From assembly GCA_035624135.1 (NCBI GenBank), contig DASPSB010000163.1:1-32128 (forward strand): DNA of 32,128 bases. The letters are read 5' to 3'. Under the pieces are notes generated by a model. That model worked only from the letters and a program-made list of their open reading frames with translations. It searched no databases and had not been told where the DNA came from. This stretch comes from Candidatus Acidiferrales bacterium (GTDB taxonomy: Bacteria; Acidobacteriota; Terriglobia; Acidiferrales; UBA7541). A program made the position numbers and the translations under genes. This document shows, piece after piece, positions 11,446 through 31,657 of the stretch. Each line of letters opens with the position of its first letter. Position 1 is the first letter of the stretch.

Positions 11446-11499
11446 AGCGGCGCCCGGCTCACCAGAAGCCCGCCAACCTCGGAAATCGAGCCAAACGAT

Positions 11500-11518
11500 C
11501 CTGCCCGGCCAGGGCAGG
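11500..11518 (+). other. hairpin between yebC and ruvC
   Basis: CCTGCCC-GGCCA-GGGCAGG forms a 7-bp stem with a 5-nt loop, 55 nt after the yebC stop. No T-run follows. Confidence 0.25.
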
Positions 11519-11612
11519 AGGGCATCGTGTCGCTGTCACACATCGATGGCGGCTCGCTATTTGATGCCGGAGTGCCGCGCAGTACACTCCCCACATGGCA
11601 GGCGATGCGCGG

Positions 11613-12245
11613 ATGCGCGTGTTGGGGATTGATCCGGCAGCGGCGGGAGCTACGGGATACGCCATTGTGGAAACAGATGGACGCGCGTGCCGCGTCCTTC
11701 ACTATGGCGCGGCACGGCCGCCACGCGCAGCGAGCCCCGCAGCACGGCTGGAAGCTGTCCACCGCCTGGTAGCCGGGCTGCTCGATGAATATTCGCCGGG
11801 GGCAGTGGCCGTGGAGGCGCCGTTTGCGGCTCTGAACGTGAAGTCGGCAATGCTGCTCGCGGAAGTGAGGGGCGTAGTGCTGCTGGCTGCGGCGCAGGGG
11901 CGAGTGCCGGTGGAAAGCTATTCGCCGCGGGAAATCAAGGCGAGCGTGGCGGGCTGCGGGCAGGCGTCAAAGGAACAGGTGCAGGTGATGGTGCGCTCGC
12001 AACTGCGGCTGGCGGAACTTCCGGAGCCGCTCGACGCCGCGGACGCGCTGGCCGTGGCGCTCTGCCATATTCACAGCCGCCAGGCGCAGATGAGAATGGG
12101 CGCCGCCCTGCGCCAGCCAGCGCCAGGCGGAGCGGACAGTGTAATTGGGACACGGCGGCGGAGTCCTGCACCAACTGGTCCGTGGCGGAGCGCCAGCCTG
12201 AATGGACGGAAATACCAGAGGAATGGGAGCGGGCGCACACGCTGA
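11613..12245 (+). CDS. ruvC: crossover junction endodeoxyribonuclease RuvC (with ~40-aa basic C-terminal tail)
   Basis: The track ORF is 11595..12245. MRVLGIDP begins at 11613. Catalytic acidic residues are GIDP, VEAP and LDAADALAVALCH. The tail after ~12117 is Arg/Gly/Pro-rich and overlaps the next ORF. Confidence 0.9.
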   Translation: MRVLGIDPAAAGATGYAIVETDGRACRVLHYGAARPPRAASPAARLEAVHRLVAGLLDEYSPGAVAVEAPFAALNVKSAMLLAEVRGVVLLAAAQGRVPVESYSPREIKASVAGCGQASKEQVQVMVRSQLRLAELPEPLDAADALAVALCHIHSRQAQMRMGAALRQPAPGGADSVIGTRRRSPAPTGPWRSASLNGRKYQRNGSGRTR

Positions 12246-12972
12246 CGCTGAACGGAGATCAGCCATTCGGAGCGCATCCACGAGAGACCGCAACTATCAC
12301 CCGCCGCGCTTTTCCGGTATCGCCCTTCTGCTTTTCTTCGCACTCGTGCCACTGAGTGGCATGACGGCGCTGGGACAGTCCCACAGCGCACCTGCGAGCG
12401 GCGCTGTGGTCATCTTCCGAAAAATATTCAAATCCAGCTCGCCGGAGTTCACGGAAATTCGCGTCCCGGAGAGCGGGCCGGGCAGTTGCGAACTGCGCGG
12501 GCTGGATGAGGACCCCAATCCGCAGCCGGTGGAGATCGGAGCGGCGCTGCGGGAAAAGATCTTCGCGCTGGCGGGGGACCTGGATGATTTTCGCGGCCTT
12601 TCGCTGGACGTGAAGCGGCGAATTGCCAATCTGGGCGAGAAGACGTTCCGGTACGAAAAGGGCGGCGACGCGAACGAAGTGAAATTCAATTACACGATCA
12701 ACGCCAAAGCCGCCCAACTGCTGCAAATCTTTGAAGCGCTCGCACGGGAGCAGGAGGATTTTGAGGTGCTCGCGCGGCGCATGAAATACGACCGCCTGGG
12801 AGTGAATGAGGTGCTGATGCAGGTGGACCAGGACGTGCGGCATCAGGCGGTGGCGCAGCCGGAGCGGTTTCTGCCGCTGCTCGAACAGATTTCCGGAGAT
12901 TCGCGGTTTCTGGAGATTGCGCGGCAGCGCTCGCGCGCATTGATTGATTTCATTCGGGTCGGGGGGAAGTGA
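12202..12972 (+). CDS. hypothetical secreted protein
   Basis: 256-aa ORF with coding-like composition and a hydrophobic signal-like segment (GIALLLFFALVPLSGMTALGQS). The only in-frame starts upstream of that segment are the ATGs at 12202 and 12223, so it overlaps the ruvC 3' end by 23-44 nt. No family is recognised. Confidence 0.6.
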   Translation: MDGNTRGMGAGAHADAERRSAIRSASTRDRNYHPPRFSGIALLLFFALVPLSGMTALGQSHSAPASGAVVIFRKIFKSSSPEFTEIRVPESGPGSCELRGLDEDPNPQPVEIGAALREKIFALAGDLDDFRGLSLDVKRRIANLGEKTFRYEKGGDANEVKFNYTINAKAAQLLQIFEALAREQEDFEVLARRMKYDRLGVNEVLMQVDQDVRHQAVAQPERFLPLLEQISGDSRFLEIARQRSRALIDFIRVGGK

Positions 12973-13018
12973 GCCGCGTCGGGGTTCCCCTGCGTGGCCC
13001 GGAACTGAAGGGCGGCGG

Positions 13019-13034
13019 TCCCGAAGCTTCGGGA
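13019..13034. repeat. palindromic repeat family B, copy 2 (TCCCGAAGCTTCGGGA)
   Basis: Perfect 16-nt palindrome preceded by GCGG. It lies 47 nt after the stop at 12972 and 121 nt before the FecR-like gene start. Confidence 0.65.
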
Positions 13035-13056
13035 TAGGGTGCGGGCGCTACGGTGC

Positions 13057-13086
13057 TTGACGCGCAGGCGGCTGAGGAGCAGCATC
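13057..13086 (+). promoter_or_regulatory. promoter-like motif TTGACG-N17-GCAGCATC upstream of the FecR-like gene
   Basis: TTGACG lies at 13057-13062, a 17-nt spacer follows, and CAGCAT lies at 13080-13085 within GCAGCATC. It sits 22 nt downstream of palindrome B copy 2 and 69 nt upstream of the ATG at 13155. Confidence 0.35.
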
Positions 13087-13154
13087 TCTCAATAGGCAGC
13101 CGGCCGGCCACTGAGGCTGCCTTCGCGACGTTCGAGTTAGTCTGGGAGGTGCCT

Positions 13155-14630
13155 ATGTCCCGCCGGGTGGTTTCGTTTCTCGCGGTTCTTTCTGCGATTG
13201 CCTGCCTGATTCTGATTCCGGCCGCGCACGCCGGCGAGGTGAGCCATGCGCGGATCGTCCGGCTCAGCTACGCCTTGGGTGACGTGCAGATGAGCGCGGA
13301 CGGCGCGGCGGGCTGGCACAAGGCGATTGCCAACACTCCGGTGCGGGAAGGAAACAGCCTGGCGACGGGCGACGGGCGCGCGGAGGTGGAGTTCGAAACC
13401 GGCGCGATGGCCTGGGTCGCATCGAACACGGTGCTCGAATTCCCGCAGCTCATTTTGGAGGACGGCGCGAAGAACACGCAGCTCGCCGTGAAGCAGGGCA
13501 CTGCGACGTTTTATGTGCAGCCGGGGCGGCACGATTCGTTTGCGGTCGAGGCCGGCCCGTTGTGGATCGTGACAACGGAGAGTGCGCGGTTCCGCGTGGA
13601 TGTTTTTGATGACGGCGCGGCCGTGAGCGTGTTGCGCGGGGCCGTGAGTGTGACGGGGAACGGTGTGACGCAACACCTGAACGGTCATTCGACGCTGGCC
13701 CTGCGCTCCGAAGCACAGGGCAGCGGCGTTGTGAGCGCAAATCCCCGGAGCGACGCGTGGGACCGCTGGGTTTCCGACCGCTTCACGTCGGTCGATGAGG
13801 CGCGGTTGAATTCGACGGACAACCTGAAAGCGCCGTTCGGCTACGGAATGGCGGACCTCAGCTTCTACGGCGGCTGGGTGATGGTGCCGGGATACGGCCT
13901 AGGGTGGCAGCCGTTTGGAGTAGGGGCGGGTTGGTCGCCGTTTTTCAACGGGTATTGGGACAGCTTCGGGCTGTTGGGTGGCCCCACGTGGATCAGCTAC
14001 GACCCTTGGGGCTGGCTGCCGTATCACTACGGCGGATGGGTGTTTTCTCCGATTTACGGCTGGGTGTGGGCGCCAGGCAGCGCGGGCTTTGCCGTGTGGA
14101 GTCCGGCCACAGTGTTCTGGATGACGACGCCCTCGGGGATCGGCTGGGTGGCGCGGGCGCCGGGTGAAACTTTGAAAGGCACCGCGCAAAATCTCGCGCA
14201 GGGAGTGGTGACGAATACATCGGCCGGCATGCTGGCGGGTTCGCGCAACTCCATTCTGCGCGGAGCGGACGCCGCGAAAGTGCAGATGATCGGCGAATGG
14301 AAGGGCGAGGGCGAGCTGAGCCGAATCGTGCAGCAGGCGCAGGGCCGGCAAGCATCACAAGCGACAACCAAGGCGGCGCTGAATATTCGGAGCGCGCAGC
14401 GGATGCCGGCAAACGGAGCGCTGCGGATTGCCAGCGCCGGAATGTTCGCAGGACACGTACAAGTTTACGAGCCGCCGATCCCGCCGGGACATCTCGGGCA
14501 CAACGCAGCCGCCCGCGAGAATCAGGGGTCGGCGGCATTGCCGACGGGAACGCCAACCGGAACTCGTAGCGAGGGCGCTGCGGGTCGTCCACAGAGCGCA
14601 ACAGGCGACGCCGGCAAAGTAAAACCTTAG
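13155..14630 (+). CDS. secreted FecR-domain protein with DUF6600-like (YxWGxW) Trp/Gly-rich domain
   Basis: The track ORF is 13053..14630. The ATG at 13155, preceded by GGGAGG, gives the signal peptide MSRRVVSFLAVLSAIACLILIPAAHA. The FecR-like segment reads ARIVRLSYALGDVQ...GNSLATGDGRAEVEFETGAMAWVASNTVLEF. The Trp-rich segment reads PWGWLPYHYGGWVFSPIYGWVWAPG. Confidence 0.75.
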   Translation: MSRRVVSFLAVLSAIACLILIPAAHAGEVSHARIVRLSYALGDVQMSADGAAGWHKAIANTPVREGNSLATGDGRAEVEFETGAMAWVASNTVLEFPQLILEDGAKNTQLAVKQGTATFYVQPGRHDSFAVEAGPLWIVTTESARFRVDVFDDGAAVSVLRGAVSVTGNGVTQHLNGHSTLALRSEAQGSGVVSANPRSDAWDRWVSDRFTSVDEARLNSTDNLKAPFGYGMADLSFYGGWVMVPGYGLGWQPFGVGAGWSPFFNGYWDSFGLLGGPTWISYDPWGWLPYHYGGWVFSPIYGWVWAPGSAGFAVWSPATVFWMTTPSGIGWVARAPGETLKGTAQNLAQGVVTNTSAGMLAGSRNSILRGADAAKVQMIGEWKGEGELSRIVQQAQGRQASQATTKAALNIRSAQRMPANGALRIASAGMFAGHVQVYEPPIPPGHLGHNAAARENQGSAALPTGTPTGTRSEGAAGRPQSATGDAGKVKP

Positions 14631-15499: not shown

Positions 15500-15946
15500 T
15501 CAACTCGACTTCGAGGGCTTCCCTTTAAGTTTGACGGCAACACTGGTGCCGGGGTTGCAATACACCGTAATCATGTCGCCGGGCTGATAGCCGCCGGTGC
15601 CCAGCATGTCCGCAACCCTGTTATGCAGATCGGTGGAGTATTGGAAGGACCAGACCATGCGCGGATTGGCCATGCTTTGGACGATAACCGTTGCGATGTT
15701 AAAGGCGAGCACGCGGCCCTTGTATTTCACCATTTTGGGCTTGGCTACTTTGACGTTGGTGTTCGGTGTCGCGTTGACGGTGACCGTCGGCGAACTGCTG
15801 ACCGTCGGCGCCGGGGTCGCGGGCGTGGGAACCCGCTGGCCGTCGCTGGTCGGCGGCGCTGCTTGCGCCGCACACACGGAAGGGAAGGCCAGGGCGAGTG
15901 CCGCGGCGGAAGCTACGAGCGCGAAGATGCGGCTATTCTTCAACAT
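15500..15946 (-). CDS. secreted hypothetical protein
   Basis: 148 aa with signal peptide MLKNSRIFALVASAAALALAFPSVCAAQ, then a Pro/Thr-rich linker and a ~90-aa beta-rich domain. Its start overlaps the stop of the upstream gene by 14 nt. Confidence 0.6.
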   Translation of the reverse strand: MLKNSRIFALVASAAALALAFPSVCAAQAAPPTSDGQRVPTPATPAPTVSSSPTVTVNATPNTNVKVAKPKMVKYKGRVLAFNIATVIVQSMANPRMVWSFQYSTDLHNRVADMLGTGGYQPGDMITVYCNPGTSVAVKLKGKPSKSS

Positions 15947-16304
15947 TGTCCACGCTGATCTTCAGTGAGCGCAGGAATTTGACGTCCTGCGCGGTCATCT
16001 GCACCCTTTCCTCCTCCGTTTCATCCTCCAGGATTTCGTCGTCCACGCGGATGCGCAGGGAATCCAGGAAGCGGCGGTCCTGCACGGTCATGCGCACGGG
16101 CTTCGCTTCACGCGGGGCCAGGCCAATGGTGGCGTCGAGCTTCAGAACGATGTCGTACCCGGCGGAGCGGACTCCGGCGATGGCTTTCTGGATGCGCTCA
16201 GAATCGGATATGGCTTCGTTGATCGCGCGGCCGAGTTCACGGAGCACCTGCTTGAGATTGTCGTCGAGCTGCACGAGAGGCCTCCCAAGTGAGACAGGAC
16301 CCAT
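15933..16304 (-). CDS. small acidic hypothetical protein with tandem 20-aa motif
   Basis: The track ORF is 15933..16331, and the ATG at 16304 (MGPVSLGRPLVQL) is the preferred start. It has a helical N-terminal half. Two copies of V-x-M-T-x-Q-D-x-x-F-L-x-S-L-x-I-x-V-D follow (VRMTVQDRRFLDSLRIRVDD and VQMTAQDVKFLRSLKISVDN). The antisense + ORF (15898..16497) is Ser/Arg junk. Confidence 0.55.
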   Translation of the reverse strand: MGPVSLGRPLVQLDDNLKQVLRELGRAINEAISDSERIQKAIAGVRSAGYDIVLKLDATIGLAPREAKPVRMTVQDRRFLDSLRIRVDDEILEDETEEERVQMTAQDVKFLRSLKISVDNVEE

Positions 16305-16493
16305 TCTAGTGCTGCGCGGAAACAGGCACAAGAGCCGCGGCAGGAGGCGTTTACAGGGCGGTAACGCACTGGAGACCGTGCGGATGCAGCCGTTTGAGGG
16401 TCGGCGGGCCCGGCGCGCGCGGCGGCCCGGGTCCGTAACTTTTCATCTCGCCGCAACGCTTGCTGCATTACACTCCTGTGACGCTCAAGAACC

Positions 16494-17801
16494 GTGAGCC
16501 ACCTGGAACCCATCATTGAAGCGCGTGCCGTGGAGCAGTTCTACGTGCAGCAGGACGGCCATCGCACGCAGATCCTGGCGCCGACCACCATCAGCATCGC
16601 GCCGGGGAAAATCGTGGCGCTGCTGGGGGCATCCGGCTGCGGAAAATCCACGCTGCTGCGGATCCTGAGTGGCCTGGCGCGGCCCTCGGCCGGCGACGTG
16701 CTCTGGCACGGCCAGCCGCTCAACGGACGCAGCCCGAACGTAGCCATCGTTTTCCAAAGCTTCGCGCTGTTTCCCTGGCTGAGCGTGATTGAAAACGTGG
16801 AGGCGCCGCTGAAGGCGCGGGGGGTGGGCGCGTTCGAGCGGCGCAAGCGCGCGCTGCGGATTCTGGATACGGTGGGGTTAGACGGATTCGAGAAGGCCTA
16901 TCCGAAAGAGCTCTCGGGCGGCATGAAGCAGCGCGTGGGGTTCGCGCGCGGGCTGGTGGTCGAGCCGGAAGTGCTGTTCATGGACGAGCCGTTCTCGGCC
17001 CTGGACGTGCTGACGGCGGAAACCCTCCGTGGCGAACTGCTGGAATTGTGGACGAGCCGGAAAATCCCGACGAACGCAATCTTCATGGTTACGCACAACA
17101 TTGAGGAAGCTGTGGAGCTCGCGGACCGCATCATCGTGCTGGCCCACCGGCCCGCGCACATCCACGATGACTTTGACGTCGGCATGCCGCACCCGCGGGA
17201 TCGCAAATCGCCGCGCTTTCTCGAGTTGGTGGACCACGTGTACAAAGTGCTCACGCTGCCGGACGAGGCGCACCTGCTGCCCTCCGAGCGCCCCGAACGC
17301 GAAAAGCACGCACCGCTGCCGCACGCACGGCCCGGAGGAATCGCAGGCCTAGTGGAGATTCTGGGCGACCGGGGCGGGTCCGACGATCTCTATCATCTGG
17401 CCGAAGACCTGGTGATGGAGTTGGACGACCTGCTGCCCATCGTCGAGGCCGCGACGCTGCTGGGCATGGTCGAGGTGGCCGAAGGGGACGCGCGGCTCAC
17501 CGCGACCGGCCGGAAGTTCGCGGATGCCGGCATTGAGCAGCGCAAACAAATATTCCGCGAGGCGGCGCTCGATAGTGTCTCCTTGCTGCGGCAAGTCCAG
17601 AGCGCGCTGCGCTCAAAGGTGGATCACACCCTGCCTGCCGAGTTCTTCCGCGACATTCTGGACGAACGGTTCAGCACCGAAGAGGCGGAGCGGCAATTCC
17701 AGACGGCGCTGGACTGGGGCCGTTACGCCGAGATTTTCGAGTACGATCCCGGAACCGACCGCCTGACGCTGCAAGACGCGGCTCTGGCCGGCGCTGCCTA
17801 A
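16494..17801 (+). CDS. ABC transporter ATP-binding protein (NitT/TauT-like) with ~190-aa C-terminal accessory domain
   Basis: GTG start at 16494. Motifs are Walker A GASGCGKST, Q-loop, signature LSGGMKQR, Walker B LFMDEPFSALD and H-loop THN. The C-terminal extension (GGIAGLVEIL...DDLLPIVEAATLLGMVE...) resembles the AAA-associated C-terminal domain of this transporter class. Confidence 0.9.
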   Translation: MSHLEPIIEARAVEQFYVQQDGHRTQILAPTTISIAPGKIVALLGASGCGKSTLLRILSGLARPSAGDVLWHGQPLNGRSPNVAIVFQSFALFPWLSVIENVEAPLKARGVGAFERRKRALRILDTVGLDGFEKAYPKELSGGMKQRVGFARGLVVEPEVLFMDEPFSALDVLTAETLRGELLELWTSRKIPTNAIFMVTHNIEEAVELADRIIVLAHRPAHIHDDFDVGMPHPRDRKSPRFLELVDHVYKVLTLPDEAHLLPSERPEREKHAPLPHARPGGIAGLVEILGDRGGSDDLYHLAEDLVMELDDLLPIVEAATLLGMVEVAEGDARLTATGRKFADAGIEQRKQIFREAALDSVSLLRQVQSALRSKVDHTLPAEFFRDILDERFSTEEAERQFQTALDWGRYAEIFEYDPGTDRLTLQDAALAGAA

Positions 17802-19982: not shown

Positions 19983-20684
19983 TCAGGAGTGCGGCTGCGG
20001 GGCGAACGCGGCTTGGACGGATTTCTGGATGGCCTTCTCGAGGCCTTCGGGATGCTTGAGAAAATCGCCGCCCACATACTTTTCCGAGAAAAACAGCAGT
20101 TCGCCGGTCTGGGCCCGAATCACTCCGAAATGAATCATCAATCCCTGCCCGCCCCCGCCCATCAGGCCGCCCATGGAAGACATCGCCTTCTCGCCTTTTG
20201 AAGTCAGCGTGCCATCCGCAGTCACCAGAATCAGGACGTCAACGTCCATCTTCTTCGTGATGGGCAGTTCCTCGACCAGGCGGAAACTTTCCAGCAGGTC
20301 GTTGCGGTGCCCGGGTTTGGACCACGCCGTCACCAGATCGCGGAAGCGCGCCTGAACGGCGAGAAGGGCGTCTTGCCGTTCCATCGTCGTCTCGCCTTCG
20401 CCGAGACACAGCGGATATTCGCTGACGAGCAGCTTCCGCTGCTCGAACAGATCGTCCATTTCGCCGCAGATGGTTCTGCGCAGATGGTCGGCGGTGCCAG
20501 TAGTTTCCGTACCGGTAGTGACGGTCCATTTCTCCACGTGCACTTCGGGAGGCACGAGCAACACGCGGGTGGCCCCGCCCAGCGCGTCCTCTTCCTTCGC
20601 GCGCCAGGGCAGTTTCTGCGCTGCAGCGGCAGAGAGCACCGCCAGCAGCGCACTCAGGATTGCCAATTGACGTGACTTGGTCAT
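19983..20684 (-). CDS. secreted hypothetical protein
   Basis: The track ORF is 19983..20708. The ATG at 20684 gives the signal peptide MTKSRQLAILSALLAVLSAAAAQ. It contains a Gly-rich loop (MGGLMGGGGQG). No family is recognised. Confidence 0.6.
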   Translation of the reverse strand: MTKSRQLAILSALLAVLSAAAAQKLPWRAKEEDALGGATRVLLVPPEVHVEKWTVTTGTETTGTADHLRRTICGEMDDLFEQRKLLVSEYPLCLGEGETTMERQDALLAVQARFRDLVTAWSKPGHRNDLLESFRLVEELPITKKMDVDVLILVTADGTLTSKGEKAMSSMGGLMGGGGQGLMIHFGVIRAQTGELLFFSEKYVGGDFLKHPEGLEKAIQKSVQAAFAPQPHS

Positions 20685-20724
20685 TTCTTGGGTATTACGC
20701 CGGGGCAATCTTATACCCGCCCGG

Positions 20725-20844: not shown

Positions 20845-22212
<1,368 letters not shown>

Positions 22213-22362: not shown

Positions 22363-22788
22363 ATGGACAACGCCGTAAAGCTGAATTTTCCGAGCGACCC
22401 GCGGTATCTCGGGGTGGTCCGCGGGGCCGTTGAGCGCTTCGCGGCCCTGGTCGGGTTCGACGAAGAGGATTGCCGGTGGATCACGCTGGCCGTGCACGAA
22501 GCGTTGACGAACGTGATTCGCCACGCGTATCACAACCAGTATGACCGGCCCGTCGAGGTGCGCCTTCGTGAGCGCGACGAAGGCATGGAGGTCGTCATGG
22601 TGGATCACGGCACCGGTGTGAAGCAGGAGCAGATGTGCGGGCGCCCGCTCGACGACGTCCGTCCCGGCGGCCTGGGTCTGCACATGATCCGCGAAATTAT
22701 GAGCGAAACGGACTACCTGCCCCTGGAGGGGCGGAATGAATTGCACCTGTTCAAGAAGAGGGGCTCGAAGACTTCGGTAGGAGAGTGA
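22363..22788 (+). CDS. RsbW/SpoIIAB-like anti-sigma-type serine protein kinase (GHKL ATPase)
   Basis: 141 aa. It has the N-box HEALTNVIRHAY, G1 box DHGTG and G2 box GGLGLH. Size and architecture match partner-switching kinases. The stop lies 3 nt before the STAS gene. Confidence 0.85.
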   Translation: MDNAVKLNFPSDPRYLGVVRGAVERFAALVGFDEEDCRWITLAVHEALTNVIRHAYHNQYDRPVEVRLRERDEGMEVVMVDHGTGVKQEQMCGRPLDDVRPGGLGLHMIREIMSETDYLPLEGRNELHLFKKRGSKTSVGE

Positions 22789-22791
22789 TCG

Positions 22792-23127
22792 ATGCAAATT
22801 GCTACGCGGCAGCAGGGCAACAGCACGCTGGTGGACGTACAGGGCGACATTGACCTGTATAATTCGCCCGAGGTGCGCAAAATCATTCTCGAGGAACTGA
22901 AGGAAAAGAAAGTGTCGCGCCTGATCGTCAACCTGACGGGCGTCCGTTACATCGACAGCTCGGGGGTCGCCTCGCTGGTGGAAGGGCTGAAGGTTTCCCG
23001 CAATATGTCCAGCCGCTTTATGCTCTACGGCCTCAGTCCGGCGGCGCGTGAAGTGCTCGAACTCTCGCGGCTGATTCGCGTTTTCGAGGTGTACGGCACT
23101 GAGCAGGAAGCGCTGCAGGCGAAATAA
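22792..23127 (+). CDS. STAS-domain protein (anti-sigma-factor antagonist / MlaB-like)
   Basis: 111 aa with the SpoIIAA/RsbV-like pattern VDVQGDIDLYNSPEVR...LTGVRYIDSSGVASLVEG. The conserved phosphorylatable Ser context (DSSG) is present. Confidence 0.85.
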   Translation: MQIATRQQGNSTLVDVQGDIDLYNSPEVRKIILEELKEKKVSRLIVNLTGVRYIDSSGVASLVEGLKVSRNMSSRFMLYGLSPAAREVLELSRLIRVFEVYGTEQEALQAK

Positions 23128-23157: not shown

Positions 23158-23952
23158 ATGGCATTCTTCGAAAGCATCGGGCGCAACACCATCGGCGGTC
23201 TCGCCTATGTGGGCGGCCTCGCGCGGCTCAGCGGGCGCGCCGCGTACTACACGCTCATCGGTCCTTTTCGCGGCAAGGCCCTGCGCTGGAGCCGCGCATT
23301 CCACCAGGCCATGGCTGTCGGCGTGGAAGCGCTGCCGATTCTTTCGGTCATTACCTTCTTTGTGGGGCTGATTCTCGCGCTTCAGGGCGCTTATGAACTG
23401 CGCAAATTCGGCGCGCTGCAGTTTGTGGCCGCGGGCGTGGGCGTCTCCATGACGCGCGAACTCGGGCCGCTCATGACTGCCATCGTGGTGATCGGGCGTT
23501 CCGGTTCGGCATTCGCCGCCGAAATCGGGACGATGAAGGTGACGGAGGAAATCGACGCCCTCACGACGATGGCGCTCAATCCCGTGCAGTTTCTGGTGAC
23601 GCCGAAGTTTCTGGCCATGATCCTGATGCTTCCCTGCCTGACCACCTGGGCGGACTTCATGGGAGTGATGGGGGGCGCGGTGTTCGGAGTCACCGGGGCC
23701 AGCTTCACTTTCGGCGGATACGTCCAGGCCACGCTCGATGCGCTGCTGAAGCGCGACATCATCGGCGGGCTGATCAAAGCCGTCATGTTCGGCGCGGTGA
23801 TCACCGCGGTGGGATGTCATGAAGGGTTCGAGACGGGCGGAGGCGCGGAAGAGGTCGGCCGCTCGACGACTTCGGCCGTGGTGATGTCCATCTTCCTGGT
23901 GATTATCGTGGACCTGATTTTCACATCCCTCTTCTACGTTCTGGAACGATGA
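23158..23952 (+). CDS. mlaE: MlaE-family ABC transporter permease
   Basis: 264 aa with the MlaE/Ttg2B pattern (RELGPLMTAIVVIGRSGSAFAAEIGTMKVTEEIDAL, VVP/ITP-KFLA). GGGAGGG lies upstream. The stop overlaps the mlaF start (ATGA). Confidence 0.9.
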   Translation: MAFFESIGRNTIGGLAYVGGLARLSGRAAYYTLIGPFRGKALRWSRAFHQAMAVGVEALPILSVITFFVGLILALQGAYELRKFGALQFVAAGVGVSMTRELGPLMTAIVVIGRSGSAFAAEIGTMKVTEEIDALTTMALNPVQFLVTPKFLAMILMLPCLTTWADFMGVMGGAVFGVTGASFTFGGYVQATLDALLKRDIIGGLIKAVMFGAVITAVGCHEGFETGGGAEEVGRSTTSAVVMSIFLVIIVDLIFTSLFYVLER

Positions 23953-24770
23953 GCGCGCCTGCGGATAGCGACAAGGCGCTCTCGGTGCGCGACCTGCGCG
24001 TTCGCTACGGCGAACGCGAAATCCTGCACGGCATCAGCTTCGACGTCACGCGGGGTGAGACGCTCGTGATTCTGGGCGGTTCCGGCTCGGGCAAAAGCAC
24101 GCTGCTGCGCACCCTGGTGGGGCTGCAGCCGACCACCTCCGGCGAGGTGTGGATCCGCGGACAGGATATCGCCAAATTGAGCGAAGAGGAGCTGGACGAA
24201 ACGCGGAAGAAGATCGGCCTTTCCTTCCAGGGTGGCGCGCTCTTTGGCTCAATGACGGTCGGAGAAAACGTATGCCTGCCTCTCCGCGAGCATACCCAGC
24301 TCGAAGAAAGCACCATCCAGATCATCATGCGGCTCAAGCTCGAGCAGGTGGGCCTGGCCGGATTTGAGAACTACATGCCCTCGCAGTTGAGCGGAGGAAT
24401 GAAGAAGCGCGCCGCGGTGGCCCGGGCCATGGCCATGGACCCGGAAATCCTGTTCTTCGACGAACCCTCCGCGGGGCTCGATCCCATCATCGCTGCGGGA
24501 ATTGACAACCTGATTCTGAAGCTGAAAAAAGCGTTCCGCATGACCATCATCGTGGTGACGCACGAACTGGCCAGCGCCTTTCTGATTGCCGACAGCATGC
24601 TGCTGATCAACAAGGGCGACATCGTGGCCCACGGCACAAGAGAGGAGATGCAGAACAGCACGCATCCGCGCGTGCGCCAGTTCCTCGACCGCGTGCCCGA
24701 GCCGGAAGTCGCCGAGGAAATGGATTATCTGCAGATGCTCACGGGCGAAGCGCCGCCCCGGGCGCTCTAG
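23949..24770 (+). CDS. mlaF: MlaF-family ABC transporter ATP-binding protein
   Basis: 273 aa. Motifs are Walker A GGSGSGKST, signature LSGGMKKR, Walker B LFFDEPSAGLDP and H-loop THE. It is translationally coupled to mlaE. Confidence 0.9.
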   Translation: MSAPADSDKALSVRDLRVRYGEREILHGISFDVTRGETLVILGGSGSGKSTLLRTLVGLQPTTSGEVWIRGQDIAKLSEEELDETRKKIGLSFQGGALFGSMTVGENVCLPLREHTQLEESTIQIIMRLKLEQVGLAGFENYMPSQLSGGMKKRAAVARAMAMDPEILFFDEPSAGLDPIIAAGIDNLILKLKKAFRMTIIVVTHELASAFLIADSMLLINKGDIVAHGTREEMQNSTHPRVRQFLDRVPEPEVAEEMDYLQMLTGEAPPRAL

Positions 24771-24775
24771 CCGGC

Positions 24776-24800
24776 CGCGGTTCGCCGCGTTTTCCTTTCC
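24776..24800 (+). terminator. short intrinsic-terminator-like hairpin after mlaF
   Basis: CGCGG-TTCG-CCGCG (5-bp GC stem with a UUCG tetraloop, 24776-24789) is followed by TTTTCCTTTCC. It starts 6 nt after the mlaF stop. The stem is short, so function is uncertain. Confidence 0.4.
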
Positions 24801-24905: not shown

Positions 24906-26768
24906 ATGAAGACCTATCTCAAAATTGCCGTGCCCTGGGGGATCGGCCTCTCGCTGGCTCTCGTGATTGGGGCCGCCGCGCTCTCCTTCCGCAACCTGGA
25001 TGAATATCGCCAGAACGCCGAATGGGTGGCCCATACGCATGTGGTGATCGAACGCCTCGAGACGCTCCGCAGCGAGGTGCTGAAGGTGGAGAACGCGCGC
25101 CGGGGCTATGTGCTCACCGGCGATCCGCAATTTGCCACGCGCCTCTCGGCCGGGCGCGCCGAAATAGAGAAAACTCTGGGCTCCCTGCGCACCCTCACCG
25201 CGGACAATGCCTCCCAGCAAAAAGAGTTGGAGGGGCTTCAAGCGCTCGTTCAATCGCGGCTCGATCTTCTGGATCGCTCCCTGGCGATCCACCGCGCGGG
25301 CCAGCCGGATGACGCAGAGCAGTCCGCCCTGACTCTTCCCGGCGCGGAACTTACCAACCGCATCCTCACGGCCCTCGATCGCATGGGCAACCGGGAGCAG
25401 GATCTGCTGCGGGAGCGCAGCGAGCAGGCGCAACGCAGCGCACTGAAATCCCGCATCGCGCTGGCTTTGGCCATGTTCACCACGATTGCGCTGATTCTGG
25501 CGGCATTCTCGCTCCTGCGCCGGGAAGTCCGCGAACGCGTGCGGGCCGAAGGGGAACTCCGGGACCTGGCAACCACCCTGGAACAAAAGGTGGCCGAGCG
25601 CACCTCCATGTTGGAAACCCATACGAAGACCCTTCGGGAACAGGCCGCCCTCCTCGATCTCGCTCACGACTCCATTTTCGTGCGCGAAATGACCAACGCG
25701 ATCCGCTTCTGGAATCGCGGTGCCGAGGAGACCTACGGATGGTCGAGGGAGGAAGCGCTCGGAAAAGTTACCCACACCATGCTCCAGACCCAATTTCCCG
25801 AGCCACTCACGAAAATTGAGGAGACCCTGCTCGCCGAAGGCCATTGGGAAGGAGAATTGATCCACACGCGCCGCGACGGCTCCTGCATCGTCGTGGACAG
25901 CCGGTGGGCTCTGCAGCAGGGCGCCGATGGCATCCCCACAGGCGTCCTCGAGCTCAACCGGGACATCACCGAACGGAAGCGATCGGAGGACGAGATTCGC
26001 TCCCTCAACCAGGCCCTCGAACGGCGCGTCGCCGAGCGCACCGCTGAGCTCGAAGCGTTCACTTCCTCGGTGGCGCACGACCTCCGCGCTCCCTTGCGCC
26101 ACGTGGATGGGTTCAGCCGCATCCTGGAAGAAGAATACGCGCCGCAACTTGGCATCGAGGGCCAGAAGCTCGTCGCGCGTGTGCGCCGGGCCACGCAGCA
26201 TATGGGCGAGCTGGTCGATGACCTCTTGAACCTCTCCCGCGTTTCCCGCCGCGAACTCTCGCCGCTGGTGACGGACCTGAATCCGCTGGTTCGCGAGGTG
26301 ATCAACGGGCTGCAGCCCGCCTGCCAGGGCCGCCACGTGGACTTCCGCGTCGGCTTGCTTCCTTTCGCCGAATGCGACCCCGGCCTCATGCGCCAGGTGT
26401 TCGCCAATCTGCTGGGCAATGCTGTGAAGTTCACGCGTCCGCGCGATCCAGCCATCATCGAAGTCGGCCAATCGGACCACAACGGCAACCGGGCCATATT
26501 CATCCGCGACAACGGCGTGGGGTTCAGCATGAAGTACGCGGACAAACTGTTTGGAGTGTTCCAGCGCTTCCATCGCGTCGAGGATTTTGAAGGCACCGGC
26601 GTAGGTCTGGCCACCGTGCTGCGCATCGTCCAGAAGCACAACGGCCGCATTTGGGCCGAGGCGGAAGTGGATCGGGGCGCGGCATTTTATTTCACGCTGG
26701 AAGGCCTGGAAGATCGGAGATCCCCGGAATCTTCCCGGCCGGCAGGAGGGCTCCATGCCAGTGGGTGA
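24906..26768 (+). CDS. sensor histidine kinase with periplasmic CHASE3 domain, PAS domain, HisKA and HATPase_c
   Basis: 620 aa. TM1 is [17 protein letters not shown]. The CHASE3-like region reads [25 protein letters not shown]...[12 protein letters not shown]2 is [18 protein letters not shown]. The PAS region contains [12 protein letters not shown]. The H-box is [10 protein letters not shown]. The ATPase has N, G1 (DNGVGF) and G2 (GTGVGL) boxes. Confidence 0.9.
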
Positions 26769-27216
26769 CGTCGATATTCTGCTCGTCGAAGACAGCCCGG
26801 AGGACGCGGAGCTCACGCTGTACAGCTTGCGCCGCAACAACCTTGCCAATCGCATTCACTGGGCCAAGGACGGAGAAGAGGGCTTGGACTTTTTATTCTG
26901 CCGCGGGCCCTATGCGGATCGCTCCTTCCAGCATCCTCCCAAGGTGGTTCTGTTGGATCTCAAGCTGCCCAAAGTGGACGGGCTCGAGGTCCTCCGGCAG
27001 ATGAAGGAAGACCCGCGGACACGGCCCATTCCGGTGGTCGTGCTCACTTCCTCTAGGGAGGAGGCGGACGTCGTCCGCGGCTATCGCAACGGCGCCAACA
27101 GCTATGTGCAGAAACCGGTGGATTTCGACCAATTCCGTGAAGCTGTGCGTCAACTTGGCCTCTACTGGATGGTCACCAACGAGCCGCCCCCCGATGCCAC
27201 GTTCGCACGCAGGTAG
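26755..27216 (+). CDS. stand-alone response-regulator receiver protein (Rcp1-like)
   Basis: 153 aa with [26 protein letters not shown] (phospho-acceptor Asp), VVVLTSS and YVQKP. It has no output domain. GGCAGGAGGG lies upstream. It overlaps the histidine kinase 3' end by 14 nt. Confidence 0.9.
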
Positions 27217-27221
27217 TTGCT

Positions 27222-29945
27222 ATGCAAAGACCCACGGAAGCCGTCCAACAGACCCCGGAAACTGAGTCGCGCGTCTTCCGCCTCCTGTTTGTCGAGGACG
27301 ACCCTGCCGACCTCGAGCTGATTCAGCGCGAACTTTCCGGTCGAGGCGTGAAATTCGAGGGCGAAGTGGTGTGCCAGCCGCAATCCTTCCGCGAGCGCAT
27401 TCGTAATTCGTCCTTCGACGCGGTCCTGTCGGACTTCCGGCTGCCCGGCTGGAATGGCATGGATGTGCTGCGCGAACTCCGGGGCCTGGGCCTGGAAATC
27501 CCGTTTTTGCTCATCACCGGAACGCTGGGAGAAGAAAAAGCCGTCGAATGCATGCGGATGGGCGCCACAGATTGCATCCTCAAGGACCGTCTGGCCCGCC
27601 TGCCAATGGCCCTGCACAATGCCGTGGACGGCTGGGAAATGCGCGAGAGACAAAAGCGCATTGCCGAGGAGTTGTGGACCAGCGAGTCGAAGCTCGGCCT
27701 GCTGCTCTCCCAGTTGCCCGCGATCATTTGGACCTCGGACCGGGCACTGCGTCTCACTTCGCTCACCGGCGCCGGCTTGGCGGCACTGCCCGAAGGAGCT
27801 TGGCAGCGGCGCGCCCGGGACTTGAACACCGATGCATCGCATCCGGCGGCGGCCGCGCACCCGCGCGCACTGGCCGGCGAATCCGTGGAATTCGAAAACG
27901 AGATCGAGGGGCGCGCCTATTGGAGCCGCGTGGAACCGCTCCGCGACGTGGCCGGAGAGACGAGCGGCTGCCTCGGCTTCGCGCTCGATATCACCGAGAA
28001 GAAGCGCATCGAGATGGAATCCCAGCGCCGCGCCCGCGAGCTTTGGCGCGCAAATGAGACACTCGCCGCCATGGTGGCCAACGCTCCCGTCGCCATCGTG
28101 GCGATGGACCATGCAGGCCGCGTTCGCATCTGGAATCCGGCGGCGGAGCGCATGTTCGGCTGGACGGCGAACGAGGTGCTCGGCGGCCCGGTTCCCTATC
28201 TGCCTTCGGAGCGCCACGGCGAACATCAGGTGTTCCGCGAAATCCTCAAACAGGGCGGCAGCATTTCCAACGTGGAAACCCAGCGGATGAGAAAACACGG
28301 AACGCTTCTCGATGTGAGCTTGTCGGCAGCTTCCGTGGAGCTCGGAGCCGGCGCCGAAGACGCTTCCAGCGAACTGGAGATAATCGCCGTACTCACGGAC
28401 ATTACCGCGCGGAAGCTGGCGGAAGCGGAAATGCTCAGGCTGAGCACGGCCATCCAGCAATCTGCGGAAGCCGTGATGATCGCCGATACCGACGGCTTCA
28501 TCCGCTACGTCAATCCCGCCTTCAGCGCCATGAGCGGATATTCCCCGGCCGAAGCCGTGGGCAAACGCACCAATTTGCTGCGTTCCGGACGGCATGACAA
28601 GAGCTTCTACGAAAATTTGTGGAAGACGATTGTGAGCGGTCAGACCTGGCGCGGGGAATTCGAAAACATCCGCAAGGACGGTTCTCCGCTGCCCATGGAG
28701 GCTTCCATCACTCCGGTGCGCGGCCCACGCGGCGTGATTACCTCGTTCATCTGCATCGCGCAGGATATCTCCGAGCGGAAGACGCTCGAGCGCCAGCTCC
28801 TCCAGGCGCAGAAGTCTGAAGCCATCGGGCAACTGGCCGGCGGCATTGCTCACGACTTCAACAACGTACTGGCGGCTATCCTGGGAATGGCCGAGTTGGG
28901 CCAGCTCGAAGCGCCGGAAGGCACCCGCATCCGCGAACGGCTCCAGAAAATCTGCCATCATACTGGCCGCGCGGTGGCGCTCACGCGCCAGCTCCTGGCA
29001 TTTTCCCGCCGGCAGCAGCTCGAGCGGCGTCCCATCAACCTGAATCTCTCCGTCAACGAAGTCGCCAGCCTGCTCAGCGACTCGCTCGGCAAAGACGTGG
29101 AATTCGTGACCAACCTGGCTCCTGAACTGGCCAGCGTCTTCGCGGACCCGGCGCAGATCGAGCAGGTGCTCATGAATCTGTGCGTGAACGCCCGCGATGC
29201 CATGCCCTCCGGTGGCCGGCTGACCATCTCCACGGGCAAGGTGCAGTTCGATCAGGAGGCCTGCCGGACGCGTCCCGGGCTCGCGCCGGGCGAATTCGTG
29301 TGTCTGACGGTCACGGATACAGGGATGGGGATGGACGCGCAGACGCTGGGTCGCATCTTCGAGCCGTTTTTCACCACCAAGCCTCCCGGACGCGGGACCG
29401 GATTGGGATTGGCCACCGTCTACGGCGTGGTCAAACAGCACGGAGGTCATATTGACGTGATGAGTTCGCCGGGCGACGGCACTACCTTCCAGCTCTACTT
29501 TCCCGTTTCGCTGCCCGCCAAGCCGGGCGCGGAAGCGCCCGCCGACGGAGAGCCGGTCACGGGCGGCAGGGAAACCATCCTGCTGGCCGAAGACCACGAA
29601 GGATTGCGCGAACTGGTGTGCGAGTCGCTCGAATCGCTCGGATACTGTGTGTTGGCGGCCTGCGATGGCGAGGAGGCTGTCGAGATCTTCCGCCGGAATT
29701 CCGGCAAGGTGGATCTGCTGATCCTCGACGTGATTATGCCGCGGCTTCGCGGCCCCGACGCCTACAAACGAATTCGCGACCTCAGCGGCTCCATCCCCGT
29801 GCTCTTCTGTACGGGCTACAGTTCCGACTCGGCCCAGGTCGAAATCATTTCCGGCCACCCCGTACTCCAGAAACCCTACCAGACGCGGGAACTGGCGCGC
29901 ACCGTCCGCTTTCTCCTCGACCAGCGTTTGCAATCTCAAAGTTGA
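27222..29945 (+). CDS. hybrid sensor histidine kinase: REC - multiple PAS - HisKA - HATPase_c - REC
   Basis: 907 aa. The N-terminal receiver has LLFVEDDPADLEL...DAVLSDFRLPG. At least three PAS-like segments are visible (IWNPAAERMFGW, YVNPAFSAMSGY). The H-box is IAHDFNNVL. The N-box is NLCVNARDAM, G1 is DTGMGM and G2 is GTGLGL. The C-terminal receiver has ILLAEDHE...LLILDVIMP. It starts 5 nt after the receiver gene stop. Confidence 0.9.
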   Translation: MQRPTEAVQQTPETESRVFRLLFVEDDPADLELIQRELSGRGVKFEGEVVCQPQSFRERIRNSSFDAVLSDFRLPGWNGMDVLRELRGLGLEIPFLLITGTLGEEKAVECMRMGATDCILKDRLARLPMALHNAVDGWEMRERQKRIAEELWTSESKLGLLLSQLPAIIWTSDRALRLTSLTGAGLAALPEGAWQRRARDLNTDASHPAAAAHPRALAGESVEFENEIEGRAYWSRVEPLRDVAGETSGCLGFALDITEKKRIEMESQRRARELWRANETLAAMVANAPVAIVAMDHAGRVRIWNPAAERMFGWTANEVLGGPVPYLPSERHGEHQVFREILKQGGSISNVETQRMRKHGTLLDVSLSAASVELGAGAEDASSELEIIAVLTDITARKLAEAEMLRLSTAIQQSAEAVMIADTDGFIRYVNPAFSAMSGYSPAEAVGKRTNLLRSGRHDKSFYENLWKTIVSGQTWRGEFENIRKDGSPLPMEASITPVRGPRGVITSFICIAQDISERKTLERQLLQAQKSEAIGQLAGGIAHDFNNVLAAILGMAELGQLEAPEGTRIRERLQKICHHTGRAVALTRQLLAFSRRQQLERRPINLNLSVNEVASLLSDSLGKDVEFVTNLAPELASVFADPAQIEQVLMNLCVNARDAMPSGGRLTISTGKVQFDQEACRTRPGLAPGEFVCLTVTDTGMGMDAQTLGRIFEPFFTTKPPGRGTGLGLATVYGVVKQHGGHIDVMSSPGDGTTFQLYFPVSLPAKPGAEAPADGEPVTGGRETILLAEDHEGLRELVCESLESLGYCVLAACDGEEAVEIFRRNSGKVDLLILDVIMPRLRGPDAYKRIRDLSGSIPVLFCTGYSSDSAQVEIISGHPVLQKPYQTRELARTVRFLLDQRLQSQS

Positions 29946-30042
29946 GCAATCCTCCGCAAGCGATTTTCGGATGCCGTGGTATACTCCCGCATCCTGGCGG
30001 CGGCAGGGAGTGCAGGAGCGCCGCCACAGGCCGGGCGTAACT

Positions 30043-31014
30043 ATGGATGCGAGGAAAGAGCAGGCCTTCGTCGGCGTTTTTGTGATCATTGCCGCGGGCC
30101 TGCTGATTGCCACGATTTTTGCCATCGGCGGGGCTTTCGGACGCGCCGGGCAAACCTACCTGGTTTACTTCAAGAATGCGGGCGGGCTCGAGCCCGGCTC
30201 CATTGTGCGCTACGCCGGCATCCGCGTGGGCCGCGTGGACAAACTCCGGATCGATCCCAAAGATCCGTCGCGCGTCATCATGGAGATCGGCCTGGAGCCG
30301 GGAGTTCCCGTCAAGACGGACAGCCTCGCTAAGATTTCCAGCCTCTCCGCTCTCGGCGAAAATTTTCTCGAGATCTTGCCGGGCAAGCCGGATTCGCCGC
30401 CGGCCCGCTCCGGCTCCGTGCTGCCCTCCAAGGAATTTTTCGGCATCAACGACGTGGCGGACATCCTGAACGATCTGGGGCCAAAGGCCGAGGATCTGGT
30501 GAGCAACCTGAACGACCGCGTCGTGCAGCTCAAGCTGACCATCGACCGCGTGAACGACCTGCTCAACGACCAGAACCGCGCTCACGTCGCCGGCTCGCTC
30601 GACAACCTGAACGGCATGCTCGCCGAAAACCGCCCGCACATTAAGAGCGCTCTCGGCCACGTGGACGATGTGTCCGCCAAGCTCGGGCCCACCGTGGACC
30701 AGTTCAAACAGACCGCCAAGCAGGCAGACGACACGCTCAAGAAAATCGACGATATCCTCGGCGAGAACCGCAAGGATCTGCACGAGTCCATCGCCCAATT
30801 GCACAAAACCCTGAGCGACGCCACCACCCTGGTGGATCAGCTCAACCGCACGCTCAACACGAACGGCGAGAGCATCGACGAGACGCTCGACAACATCCGC
30901 CTGGCCACCGAAAACCTGCGCGAGTTTACTGATACCATCCGCACGCGGCCCTACACCCTCATCCGCACCGCGGAGCCGCCGGAGCACAAGCCGGGGGAGG
31001 GTTCCAAGCCGTGA
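30043..31014 (+). CDS. mlaD: MlaD/MCE-family protein with long C-terminal helical extension
   Basis: The track ORF is 29971..31014. The ATG at 30043 gives MDARKEQAFVGVFVIIAAGLLIATIFAIGG (TM anchor). The MCE core reads GLEPGSIVRYAGIRVGRVDKLRIDP. About 190 aa of heptad-like helical sequence follow (NDLLNDQNR...LDNLNGML...LKKIDDILGEN...). Confidence 0.85.
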   Translation: MDARKEQAFVGVFVIIAAGLLIATIFAIGGAFGRAGQTYLVYFKNAGGLEPGSIVRYAGIRVGRVDKLRIDPKDPSRVIMEIGLEPGVPVKTDSLAKISSLSALGENFLEILPGKPDSPPARSGSVLPSKEFFGINDVADILNDLGPKAEDLVSNLNDRVVQLKLTIDRVNDLLNDQNRAHVAGSLDNLNGMLAENRPHIKSALGHVDDVSAKLGPTVDQFKQTAKQADDTLKKIDDILGENRKDLHESIAQLHKTLSDATTLVDQLNRTLNTNGESIDETLDNIRLATENLREFTDTIRTRPYTLIRTAEPPEHKPGEGSKP

Positions 31015-31027
31015 GAGAGGTCCTGGC

Positions 31028-31657
31028 ATGAGCCTTCCTAAATCCGCCTGTGCGGCGGCAGCGCTCGCCGTAGGGGCAGTGCTGCTTCTGACCGGCTGCG
31101 GCGCGGCGCGCCCCATCAAATACTATTCGCTCGATCCGCCGGAGGTCGCCGCGGCGGGACAGCGGACGGACGCATCGTTGCTCATCGCCCATTTCCATGC
31201 TCCCACTCTTTACCGCGACACGCGCATTGTCTACCGCAACGGCGGGAACGAGATGGGCCTGTACGAGGAACATCGCTGGGTGGAAGCCCCGGCGTTGATG
31301 GTCGAAGAGATGGTGCTCCAATACCTGCGCCGCAGCGGCCGCTACAAGAGCGTGCAGAACATTTCTTCGAACGCGCAGGGGGATTACATCGTTCATGGCC
31401 GCGTCGAGCGCTTCGAACAGGTGGAGGGCAAGCCGCTTTCTGCGCGCGTCTGGCTGCGCCTGAGCCTCTACGACCCCAAGGCCGGCGCCACCGTTTGGGC
31501 GGAAAGTTACGAGCGCGACGAACAGGCGGCCGGAGACGATTTTGCCTCGATTGTCGCTGCGCTCGATAAGAATCTGCAGCAGGGTGTGATCCAGCTCGCC
31601 GGAGGCATCGATCAGTACATCACGGCGCACCCGCGCCCGGCAGAATCATCCAAGTAG
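31028..31657 (+). CDS. PqiC/YmbA-like (DUF330) ABC-transport auxiliary lipoprotein
   Basis: 209 aa. The signal peptide has a lipobox, LLLTGC. Also present are PIKYYSL, a WVEAP context and a size typical of DUF330 lipoproteins. GAGAGAGG lies upstream, and it starts 13 nt after the mlaD stop. Confidence 0.75.
   Translation: MSLPKSACAAAALAVGAVLLLTGCGAARPIKYYSLDPPEVAAAGQRTDASLLIAHFHAPTLYRDTRIVYRNGGNEMGLYEEHRWVEAPALMVEEMVLQYLRRSGRYKSVQNISSNAQGDYIVHGRVERFEQVEGKPLSARVWLRLSLYDPKAGATVWAESYERDEQAAGDDFASIVAALDKNLQQGVIQLAGGIDQYITAHPRPAESSK

Follow-up and report, generated by a model that had tools for sequence, protein, structure and literature searches.

The closest described relatives of the two proteins considered here belong to two partner-switching modules of Bacillus, that of sigma F (SpoIIAA-SpoIIAB-SpoIIE) and that of sigma B (RsbV-RsbW-RsbU/P), in which the genes are arranged in the order STAS-kinase-sigma. 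The subject of this report is a gene pair encoding an RsbW/SpoIIAB-type serine protein kinase and a SpoIIAA/RsbV-type STAS protein, at positions 22363-23127 of contig DASPSB010000163.1. The contig belongs to an Acidobacteriota genome (Terriglobia / "Acidiferrales") assembled from peat, and the whole stretch of 32,128 nucleotides (nt) that was analyzed is called the window. The module found here shares with those of Bacillus the DSSG acceptor, the Bergerat-fold kinase and, in related loci, the SpoIIE-family phosphatase. In contrast to Bacillus, the order is kinase-STAS and the next genes are those of a transporter of the ATP-binding cassette (ABC) type, with no sigma gene.

Partner switches without a sigma factor that have a STAS protein as their output have been described in Vibrio fischeri (SypA/SypE), Bordetella (BtrU/V/W) and Rhodobacter (RbaV/W/Y) (PMC8256260). 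SypA (Ser56) is active when unphosphorylated and is controlled by an RsbW-like kinase and a PP2C phosphatase (PMC8256260). As far as the targets of these systems are known, they have to do with biofilm, type III secretion or the production of gene transfer agent; none is an ABC transporter, and none of the systems is embedded in an mla/MCE operon.

The E. coli MlaFEDB system (6XBD, 6XGY; PMC5016091, PMC7367683) resembles the window in having a small cytoplasmic STAS protein, MlaB, encoded in the MlaE/MlaF/MlaD operon. MlaB binds the helical subdomain of MlaF via its helices alpha1-alpha3 with T52 in a central position, and the substitution T52E weakens this binding (PMC7367683). The C-terminal extension of the neighbouring MlaF contributes a short helix (Y261, L265, L266) which docks in the MlaB-MlaF groove (PMC7367683). 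Phosphoregulation of MlaB through T52 has been proposed for E. coli, where no kinase is known (PMC5016091, PMC7367683). In the Mpc (Mla-Pqi chimeric) system MpcEFDA of Brucella abortus, a STAS domain is located at the N-terminus of the permease MpcE (PMC12436622). The gene content and order of this system are those of the window, namely STAS, MlaE, MlaF, long MlaD (helical needle) and PqiC-like lipoprotein (PMC12436622).

Based on the comparisons given below, we rate it slightly better than an even chance that the kinase and STAS genes are the regulatory part, at the head, of an operon for an envelope lipid ABC transporter of the Mpc/Mla type, and that the STAS protein would act on MlaF. The features of the module, all on the plus strand, are as follows.

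22363..22788, plus strand: RsbW/SpoIIAB-type serine protein kinase, 141 amino acids (aa) (PF13581 match; phmmer against PDB; AlphaFold2 (AF2)/Foldseek)
22498-22512, plus strand: N-box of the kinase, E46-N50 (ATP-binding box)
22603-22617, plus strand: G1 box of the kinase, D81-G85, with D81-x-G83 (ATP-binding box)
22666-22677, plus strand: G2 box of the kinase, G102-G103-L104-G105 (ATP-binding box)
22792..23127, plus strand: SpoIIAA/RsbV-type single-domain STAS protein, 111 aa (PF01740, TIGR00377, AF2/Foldseek)
22957-22959, plus strand: candidate phospho-acceptor Ser56 of the STAS protein, in DSSG at the N-terminus of helix alpha2 (alignment with SpoIIAA)
23158..23952, plus strand: MlaE-family ABC permease, 264 aa (PF02405, E 6.8e-78; TIGR00056, 241 bits against a cut-off of 212)
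23949..24770, plus strand: MlaF-like ABC ATPase, 273 aa (ABC_tran, E 2.4e-33)
24723-24743, plus strand: motif D259-YLQML-T265 in MlaF's C-terminal extension (alignment with E. coli MlaF)
29971..31014, plus strand: long protein with an MlaD/MCE domain and a helical region at the C-terminus, 347 aa (PF02470, E 6.4e-22; Apolipoprotein-like helical region)
31028..31657, plus strand: ABC_trans_aux (PqiC/YmbA-like) lipoprotein, last gene of the operon (PF03886, E 1.6e-19)

The kinase matched Pfam HATPase_c_2 (PF13581) with an E value of 7.9e-26 (91 bits), and scored below the NCBIfam equivalog cut-offs for RsbW (NF003144, 65.6 vs 145) and SpoIIAB (TIGR01925, 53 vs 135). The closest solved relatives found by phmmer in PDB were RsbW (6m36_A, E 8e-13) and also SpoIIAB. 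An AF2 model based on 22 homologues, with a predicted local distance difference test score (pLDDT) of 84, gave SpoIIAB, RsbW and mycobacterial UsfX as its top Foldseek matches. By these profile scores the protein is classed as a member of the HATPase_c_2 anti-sigma kinase family and not as an orthologue of RsbW or SpoIIAB. Residues E46, N50, D81, G83 and G105 are invariant in 70/70 orthologues and G102-L104 are kept in at least 68 of the 70; the second glycine of the G1 box is variable.

The STAS protein matched Pfam PF01740 with an E value of 2.9e-19 (69.3 bits, cut-off 22.6) and passed the NCBIfam anti-sigma factor antagonist model TIGR00377 (82.8 bits, cut-off 53.45), falling short of the SpoIIAA equivalog TIGR02886 (60.1 vs 114.75). 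Its AF2 model (pLDDT 95) has the topology b1-b2-a1-b3-a2-b4-a3-b5-a4, that is, the full STAS fold with a fifth strand at residues 99-101 and a C-terminal helix at residues 104-109. In Foldseek comparisons the model reached template modelling (TM) scores of 0.87-0.90 to TM1442 and SpoIIAA, and of 0.82 to RsbV. The sequence YIDSSGVASL occupies residues 53-62, with Ser56 aligned with the phosphorylated serine of SpoIIAA, and residues 53-64 (YIDSSGVASLVE) were unchanged across 82 orthologues. DSSG was present in all of the STAS motif matches from related loci (172/172). Judged by score, modelled fold and acceptor site, the protein belongs to the superfamily of SpoIIAA/RsbV-type antagonists.

The original prediction, made from the sequence of the window, had described a 141-aa kinase with intact N, G1 and G2 boxes followed by a 111-aa STAS protein with the phospho-acceptor context of SpoIIAA/RsbV, its gene lying 30 nt upstream of mlaE. 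Both reading frames and the spacing proved exact, and the three boxes and the acceptor serine could be located. The kinase stop and the STAS start are separated by 3 nt, the STAS stop (23127) and the mlaE start (23158) by 30 nt, and mlaE and mlaF overlap by 4 nt. The best NCBIfam match of the ATPase was the MlaF model PRK11831 (234.6 bits, under the equivalog cut-off of 441), and its best PDB matches were the MlaF chains of the 7d06/6z5u entries, of P. aeruginosa and of E. coli. Beyond mlaF the operon runs on the same strand through three two-component genes to mlaD and the gene for the PqiC-like lipoprotein. MlaE, MlaF, a long MlaD and a PqiC-like lipoprotein, the components of an Mla/Mpc-type MCE ABC transporter, are thus all encoded; neither MlaC nor MlaA was identified among those open reading frames (ORFs) of the window that were scanned. 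In these respects the operon differs from that of E. coli, which has its STAS gene at the end and not at the head. The present system also differs from E. coli Mla in having a kinase of its own, which is joined by a PP2C phosphatase in most lineages.

The lipoprotein gene of the window has the position of MpcA in the Brucella system (PMC12436622). The same pattern was seen on a Sinorhizobium replicon, where the genes after that of a STAS-MlaE fusion encode a long MlaD and an ABC_trans_aux lipoprotein. The separate STAS gene of the window occupies the place of the permease-fused STAS domain of Mpc, a Rosetta-stone sign of a MlaB-like role. The two forms are not identical: the Mpc domain is fused, MlaB-like (MDTAG) and without a kinase or phosphatase beside it, whereas the window protein is separate, SpoIIAA-like and preceded by a kinase. 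No STAS-MlaE fusion was found among the 150 nearest STAS clusters, so the fusion argument is based on Alphaproteobacteria.

When each GTDB species was scanned through one genome, 588 STAS relatives were obtained, the best 80 of which were analyzed. A second set, 80 metagenome loci obtained with a diverse STAS alignment as the query, contained only close Acidobacterial relatives and provides replication without added breadth. An mlaE gene was located within 450 nt after the STAS gene in 80/80 species genomes and in 62/63 metagenome loci. The kinase gene was directly upstream of STAS in 70/79 genome loci and 56/71 metagenome loci, and the common order was kinase-STAS-mlaE-mlaF-mlaD-lipoprotein with short gaps or overlapping genes. 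In the nine genome loci which are without a kinase, STAS still precedes mlaE and retains DSSG.

In one relative, L001, a gene of 887 aa (11335-13998) whose product combines TPR, caspase-like peptidase C14 and polysaccharide deacetylase domains lies between mlaE and mlaF, which is another case of insertions tolerated within the operon. In the metagenome locus L159 (1482-2959) the kinase and STAS genes are followed by the lipoprotein gene, with no match to mlaE, mlaF or mlaD; this arrangement could be a deletion or an assembly artefact.

Outside the Acidobacteriota, a search of 1.84 billion cluster representatives placed 26 clusters in the tight STAS family (under E 1e-30), beyond which there is a continuum of stand-alone STAS proteins. 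The next-closest family was found in KSB1, Calditrichota and Bacteroidota. All three loci examined from these phyla start with GAF-SpoIIE, kinase, STAS and mlaE, and the two which have a downstream mlaF go on to mlaD and a lipoprotein gene. STAS and mlaE overlap there by 4 to 17 nt, and kinase and STAS overlap in two of the three. Further representatives included one with STAS-mlaE-mlaF and no kinase, one with kinase-STAS-mlaE, and a short contig with PP2C-kinase-STAS. A different order, kinase-STAS-mlaF-mlaE-short mlaD (150 aa), was observed in L178 (6532-9467), from a lineage with 42% guanine plus cytosine (GC); this order is E. coli-like, and in the kinase of this lineage D-N-A replaces the D-x-G of the G1 box. 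A more distant STAS protein (E 1e-19) with a DSTG motif did not adjoin mla genes, and it marks the edge of the mla-linked clade. By these matches the module is present in hundreds of Acidobacteriota species as well as in KSB1, Calditrichota and Bacteroidota, that is, in at least four phyla. Since the linkage persists across phylum-level divergence, a change in gene order and loss of the kinase, the pair is tied to the transporter.

No PP2C gene was identified in the window. In related loci there is a SpoIIE-family PP2C (PF07228, E 2e-30; about 270 aa) that stands alone and has no sensory domain, such as that at 9927-10739 on the minus strand of L023. Its gene was found in convergent orientation 50-350 nt past the last operon gene in 36/80 genome loci; one additional locus has it upstream of the kinase. 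Its identity among these loci is 62-98%. In other loci, SpoIIE genes with a PAS or receiver domain are located upstream or downstream. Wide flanks were available for 63 genome loci, of which 39 have both kinase and PP2C, 17 the kinase only, seven neither and none the PP2C only (Fisher p 6e-4, the loci being phylogenetically non-independent). A PP2C gene heads the operon in each of the three loci examined from KSB1, Bacteroidota and Calditrichota. From this distribution the phosphatase is predicted to be part of the module, present in the loci of most relatives though not in the window.

RsbW/SpoIIAB-type kinases bind sigma factors of the FliA/RpoS-like groups 1-3. The window ORFs that were scanned included no sigma gene, and tblastn with FliA, RpoS and an extracytoplasmic function (ECF) sigma factor gave no match in the window. 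A tblastn search of 174 loci (1.58 Mb in all), for which FliA and RpoS of E. coli were the queries, revealed no group 1-3 sigma gene, the sole exception being a 28-residue fragment at one contig end. The Pfam-labelled neighbourhoods of eleven loci were likewise without a sigma gene of these groups. One feature of the antagonist superfamily, control of a sigma factor of the same operon, is therefore not seen for the STAS protein, with no sigma gene in the window and none of groups 1-3 in the 174 loci. The absence of a nearby sigma factor gene, as originally predicted, holds for the window and, as regards groups 1-3, for the related loci. The proposal that the pair serves an Mla-type ABC transporter and not a sigma factor gains comparative support from this absence and from the nearly invariant adjacency of mlaE.

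A MlaB-like role for the STAS protein is suggested by the sequence of MlaF. The C-terminal extensions of E. coli MlaF and window MlaF both carry an aromatic-x3-Leu motif. When D-Y-L-Q-M-L-T of the window is aligned with D-Y-H-A-D-L-L of E. coli, Y261 and L265 are matched and L266 stands opposite T265. The motif is at least 90% conserved, D-Y-L-x-x-L being present in 121/123 C-termini of a set matched by a pattern built from the motif itself; MlaF of other lineages has an aromatic-L-x-x-L version. On the STAS side, the Ser/Thr character of the acceptor is shared, S56 of the window being at the position structurally equivalent to T52 of E. coli MlaB. The mean pairwise distances were 0.27 for STAS, 0.21 for MlaE, 0.205 for MlaF and 0.65 for the kinase, so that STAS keeps pace with MlaE and MlaF, and the rate of the kinase is about threefold that of these two. 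That helix alpha2 of STAS is frozen would be unexpected were the fast-evolving kinase its only partner, which is suggestive, but no proof, of an action on MlaF.

E. coli MlaB is a minimal STAS protein of four strands and three helices, and the window protein, in contrast, is a full SpoIIAA-type protein with b5 and a4. According to the structural description, b5 and a4 of SpoIIAA-type STAS proteins lie on the face opposite the helical one (PMC7367683). By analogy, the extra elements would pack away from the helical face and need not block MlaF binding. The protein is, by sequence and modelled fold, not a member of the MlaB family and may nonetheless work like MlaB. The earlier idea of a phospho-regulated MlaB analogue has comparative support, with the qualification that the protein, though encoded like MlaB in an MlaE/MlaF/MlaD operon, is itself of the SpoIIAA type.

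In the mechanism that we propose, the STAS protein would do, as a separate polypeptide, what MlaB does in E. coli and what the permease-fused STAS domain of MpcE does in Brucella. Unphosphorylated STAS would bind the MlaF ATPase via its helical face, with Ser56 in the centre, and so support assembly and ATPase activity in the manner of MlaB. The RsbW-like kinase would compete for the same face of STAS and phosphorylate Ser56, releasing STAS from MlaF and turning the transporter down. A PP2C (SpoIIE-family) phosphatase, which has a GAF, PAS, receiver or no input domain depending on the lineage, would then restore the active state. What the sequences show are the identities of the domains, the conservation of the catalytic and acceptor residues, and the structure of the operon with its variants; phosphorylation of Ser56, the STAS-MlaF contact and the direction of the effect are what we infer by analogy with the described systems. 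The logic is that of SypA/SypE, with unphosphorylated STAS as the output; here the target would be identifiable. We put at about even the chances that a complete partner switch has been recruited in at least four phyla to gate an MCE/Mla transporter post-translationally through reversible binding of STAS to MlaF.

Several observations weigh against a MlaB-like action of the STAS protein on MlaF. In the Foldseek search with the STAS model, E. coli MlaB (6xbd_K) ranked only 47th with a TM score of 0.54. The STAS protein had no match to the NCBIfam MlaB model NF033618 at E <= 0.01, and P. aeruginosa MlaB was reached with an E value of 0.24. Profile homology of STAS to MlaB and to the STAS domain of MpcE was rejected, the hhalign probabilities of 4.7% and 0.4% not being significant; the non-significant alignment with MlaB places S56 opposite E. 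coli T52 and was not used as evidence of homology beyond the common fold. Mirror-tree partial correlations of 0.52 (STAS-MlaE), 0.48 (STAS-MlaF) and -0.04 (STAS-kinase) are confounded by rate class. Because fast and slow proteins cluster by rate class, the plain rate comparison alone was used. The E. coli MlaB variant T52A loses ATPase activity yet keeps binding (PMC7367683). The acceptor residue may therefore matter beyond phosphorylation, which would also explain the DSSG of loci without a kinase. The window, in addition, gives a view of 32 kb of the genome, and a target sigma factor and the phosphatase may lie elsewhere. Finally, there is one sub-clade of Acidobacterial loci with a gene for an ECF sigma factor (Sigma70_r2 and r4_2) and, right after it, a PAS-SpoIIE gene, this pair lying two to three genes upstream of STAS. 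This sub-clade comprises 8 of about 160 Acidobacterial loci (L049, L113, L130, L148, L150, L156, L160 and L161), and it keeps the classical sigma model alive. To our knowledge, ECF sigma factors are not clients of RsbW-type kinases.

Within the sub-clade, the ECF and PAS-SpoIIE genes overlap by 4 nt in L130 (835-2945) and are 40 nt apart in L148 (2518-4531). A secreted protein of 322 aa is encoded between the PAS-SpoIIE gene and the kinase in L148. L130 has no kinase ORF between PAS-SpoIIE and the STAS-mlaE operon, and L113 gave no kinase match.

Chance adjacency or passive hitch-hiking of the pair was rejected, since the linkage survives phylum-level divergence and changes in gene order. A switch centred on the kinase would follow the canonical SpoIIAB/SpoIIAA and RsbW/RsbV logic, that of the proteins to which both are nearest in sequence and structure: the RsbW-like protein would bind and inhibit MlaF or MlaE, unphosphorylated STAS would pull the kinase off, and phosphorylation of STAS would reset the system. 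Conservation of the operon supports this equally. It is STAS, however, and not the kinase, that adjoins or overlaps the transporter genes and that stays there in the roughly one eighth of loci from which the kinase is missing; Mpc systems fuse STAS to the permease, the transporter-binding protein of E. coli is the STAS protein MlaB, and the kinase changes about three times as fast as its supposed targets MlaE and MlaF. We therefore regard a kinase-centred switch as improbable. A classical anti-sigma switch, with the kinase holding a sigma factor encoded elsewhere, STAS as the antagonist, and the pair merely co-transcribed with mla, for example in an envelope stress regulon, also appears unlikely. 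Co-transcription does not predict a linkage to mla which outlasts the E-F versus F-E rearrangement, the loss of the kinase and the divergence of phyla. The order kinase then STAS, with the transporter where the sigB/sigF operons have the sigma gene, speaks against it as well, as does the lack of a group 1-3 sigma gene in the 174 loci (1.58 Mb). Both proteins do belong to anti-sigma and anti-anti-sigma families and the window covers 32 kb of the genome; the ECF sigma and PAS-PP2C genes upstream of the module are a further point in favour, seen in only some 8 out of about 160 loci from Acidobacteriota.

The STAS protein could also be a constitutive MlaB-like subunit without phosphoregulation, with DSSG serving for MlaF contact only and the kinase-like protein being non-catalytic or an unrelated regulator. 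The invariant E46, N50, D81, G83 and G105 of the 70 kinase orthologues, with G102-L104 in at least 68, are difficult to reconcile with a non-catalytic protein, even though the second glycine of G1 varies and one lineage has D-N-A for D-x-G. The retention of DSSG in kinase-less loci, and the inactivity of E. coli MlaB T52A where no kinase is known, would fit such a subunit. A PP2C gene, on the other hand, accompanies the kinase (39 loci against 0 with PP2C only) and heads the operon in three other phyla; a PP2C travelling with the kinase makes sense only if a phospho-protein is cycled, which weighs against a constitutive subunit. We consider this explanation very unlikely.

A 2021 review of stand-alone STAS proteins makes no mention of MlaB or of ABC transporters as outputs (PMC8256260), and in a phylogenomic survey of the Mla components from 2023, MlaB is dealt with only as a protein of sparse distribution. 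A full-text literature search, in which not all journals were covered and prior notice is possible, found no description of a kinase/phosphatase module in mla/MCE operons. The original prediction of a new output for partner switching would hold in so far as a transporter is new as an output; non-sigma outputs as such were already known (PMC8256260). The novelty is the transporter as the likely output and not the absence of a sigma factor. If the proposed action on MlaF is correct, an ABC transporter would for the first time join the outputs of partner switching, and the phosphoregulation hypothesis for E. coli MlaB would have a natural realisation. Envelope lipid traffic would be tuned to signals through reversible phosphorylation, and the GAF, PAS and receiver inputs would give a handle on those signals. 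The kinase, STAS, the transporter and, in most lineages, a phosphatase linked to a sensor are encoded in one locus, mostly in one operon, so that the hypothesis could be tested with few recombinant proteins.

The remaining features of the operon lie between mlaF and mlaD.

24776..24789, plus strand: weak terminator-like GC hairpin followed by a T-rich tail, TTTTCCTTTC, 6 nt past the mlaF stop
24906..26768, plus strand: CHASE3-PAS-HisKA-HATPase_c sensor histidine kinase, first inserted gene (Pfam)
26755..27216, plus strand: single-domain response regulator, inserted gene (PF00072, E 1.3e-19)
27222..29945, plus strand: hybrid histidine kinase REC-PAS-PAS-HisKA-HATPase_c-REC, inserted gene (Pfam)

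The hairpin at 24776-24789 is a possible terminator or attenuator between kinase-STAS-mlaEF and the downstream genes; terminator-like sites in the region were no more frequent than in shuffled sequence. A promoter scan identified no sigma-70-like site upstream of the kinase gene. The two-component insertion (24906-29945) was seen only in the close relatives L002-L008, L083 and L084. In most related loci mlaF is directly followed by mlaD, and the three signalling genes are accordingly a lineage-specific insertion. They might supply regulatory input in the lineage of the window, where a PP2C gene is missing from the locus.

Directly upstream of the kinase gene is a citrate synthase gene (20845-22212), which is kept in L001-L008, L010, L012 and L083-L086. 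This neighbourhood in many Terriglobia relatives indicates local synteny and not a functional link. Elsewhere in the window, ORFs without a Pfam match were located at 2616-3494, 4035-5534 and 19983-20708 on the minus strand, and at 12202-12972 and 15898-16497; in DNA with 63% GC some of these may not be real genes. A FecR and DUF6600 protein is encoded at 13053-14630, with no ECF sigma gene adjoining, and a Hanks-type Ser/Thr protein kinase of 612 aa is encoded at 8685-10523 on the minus strand.

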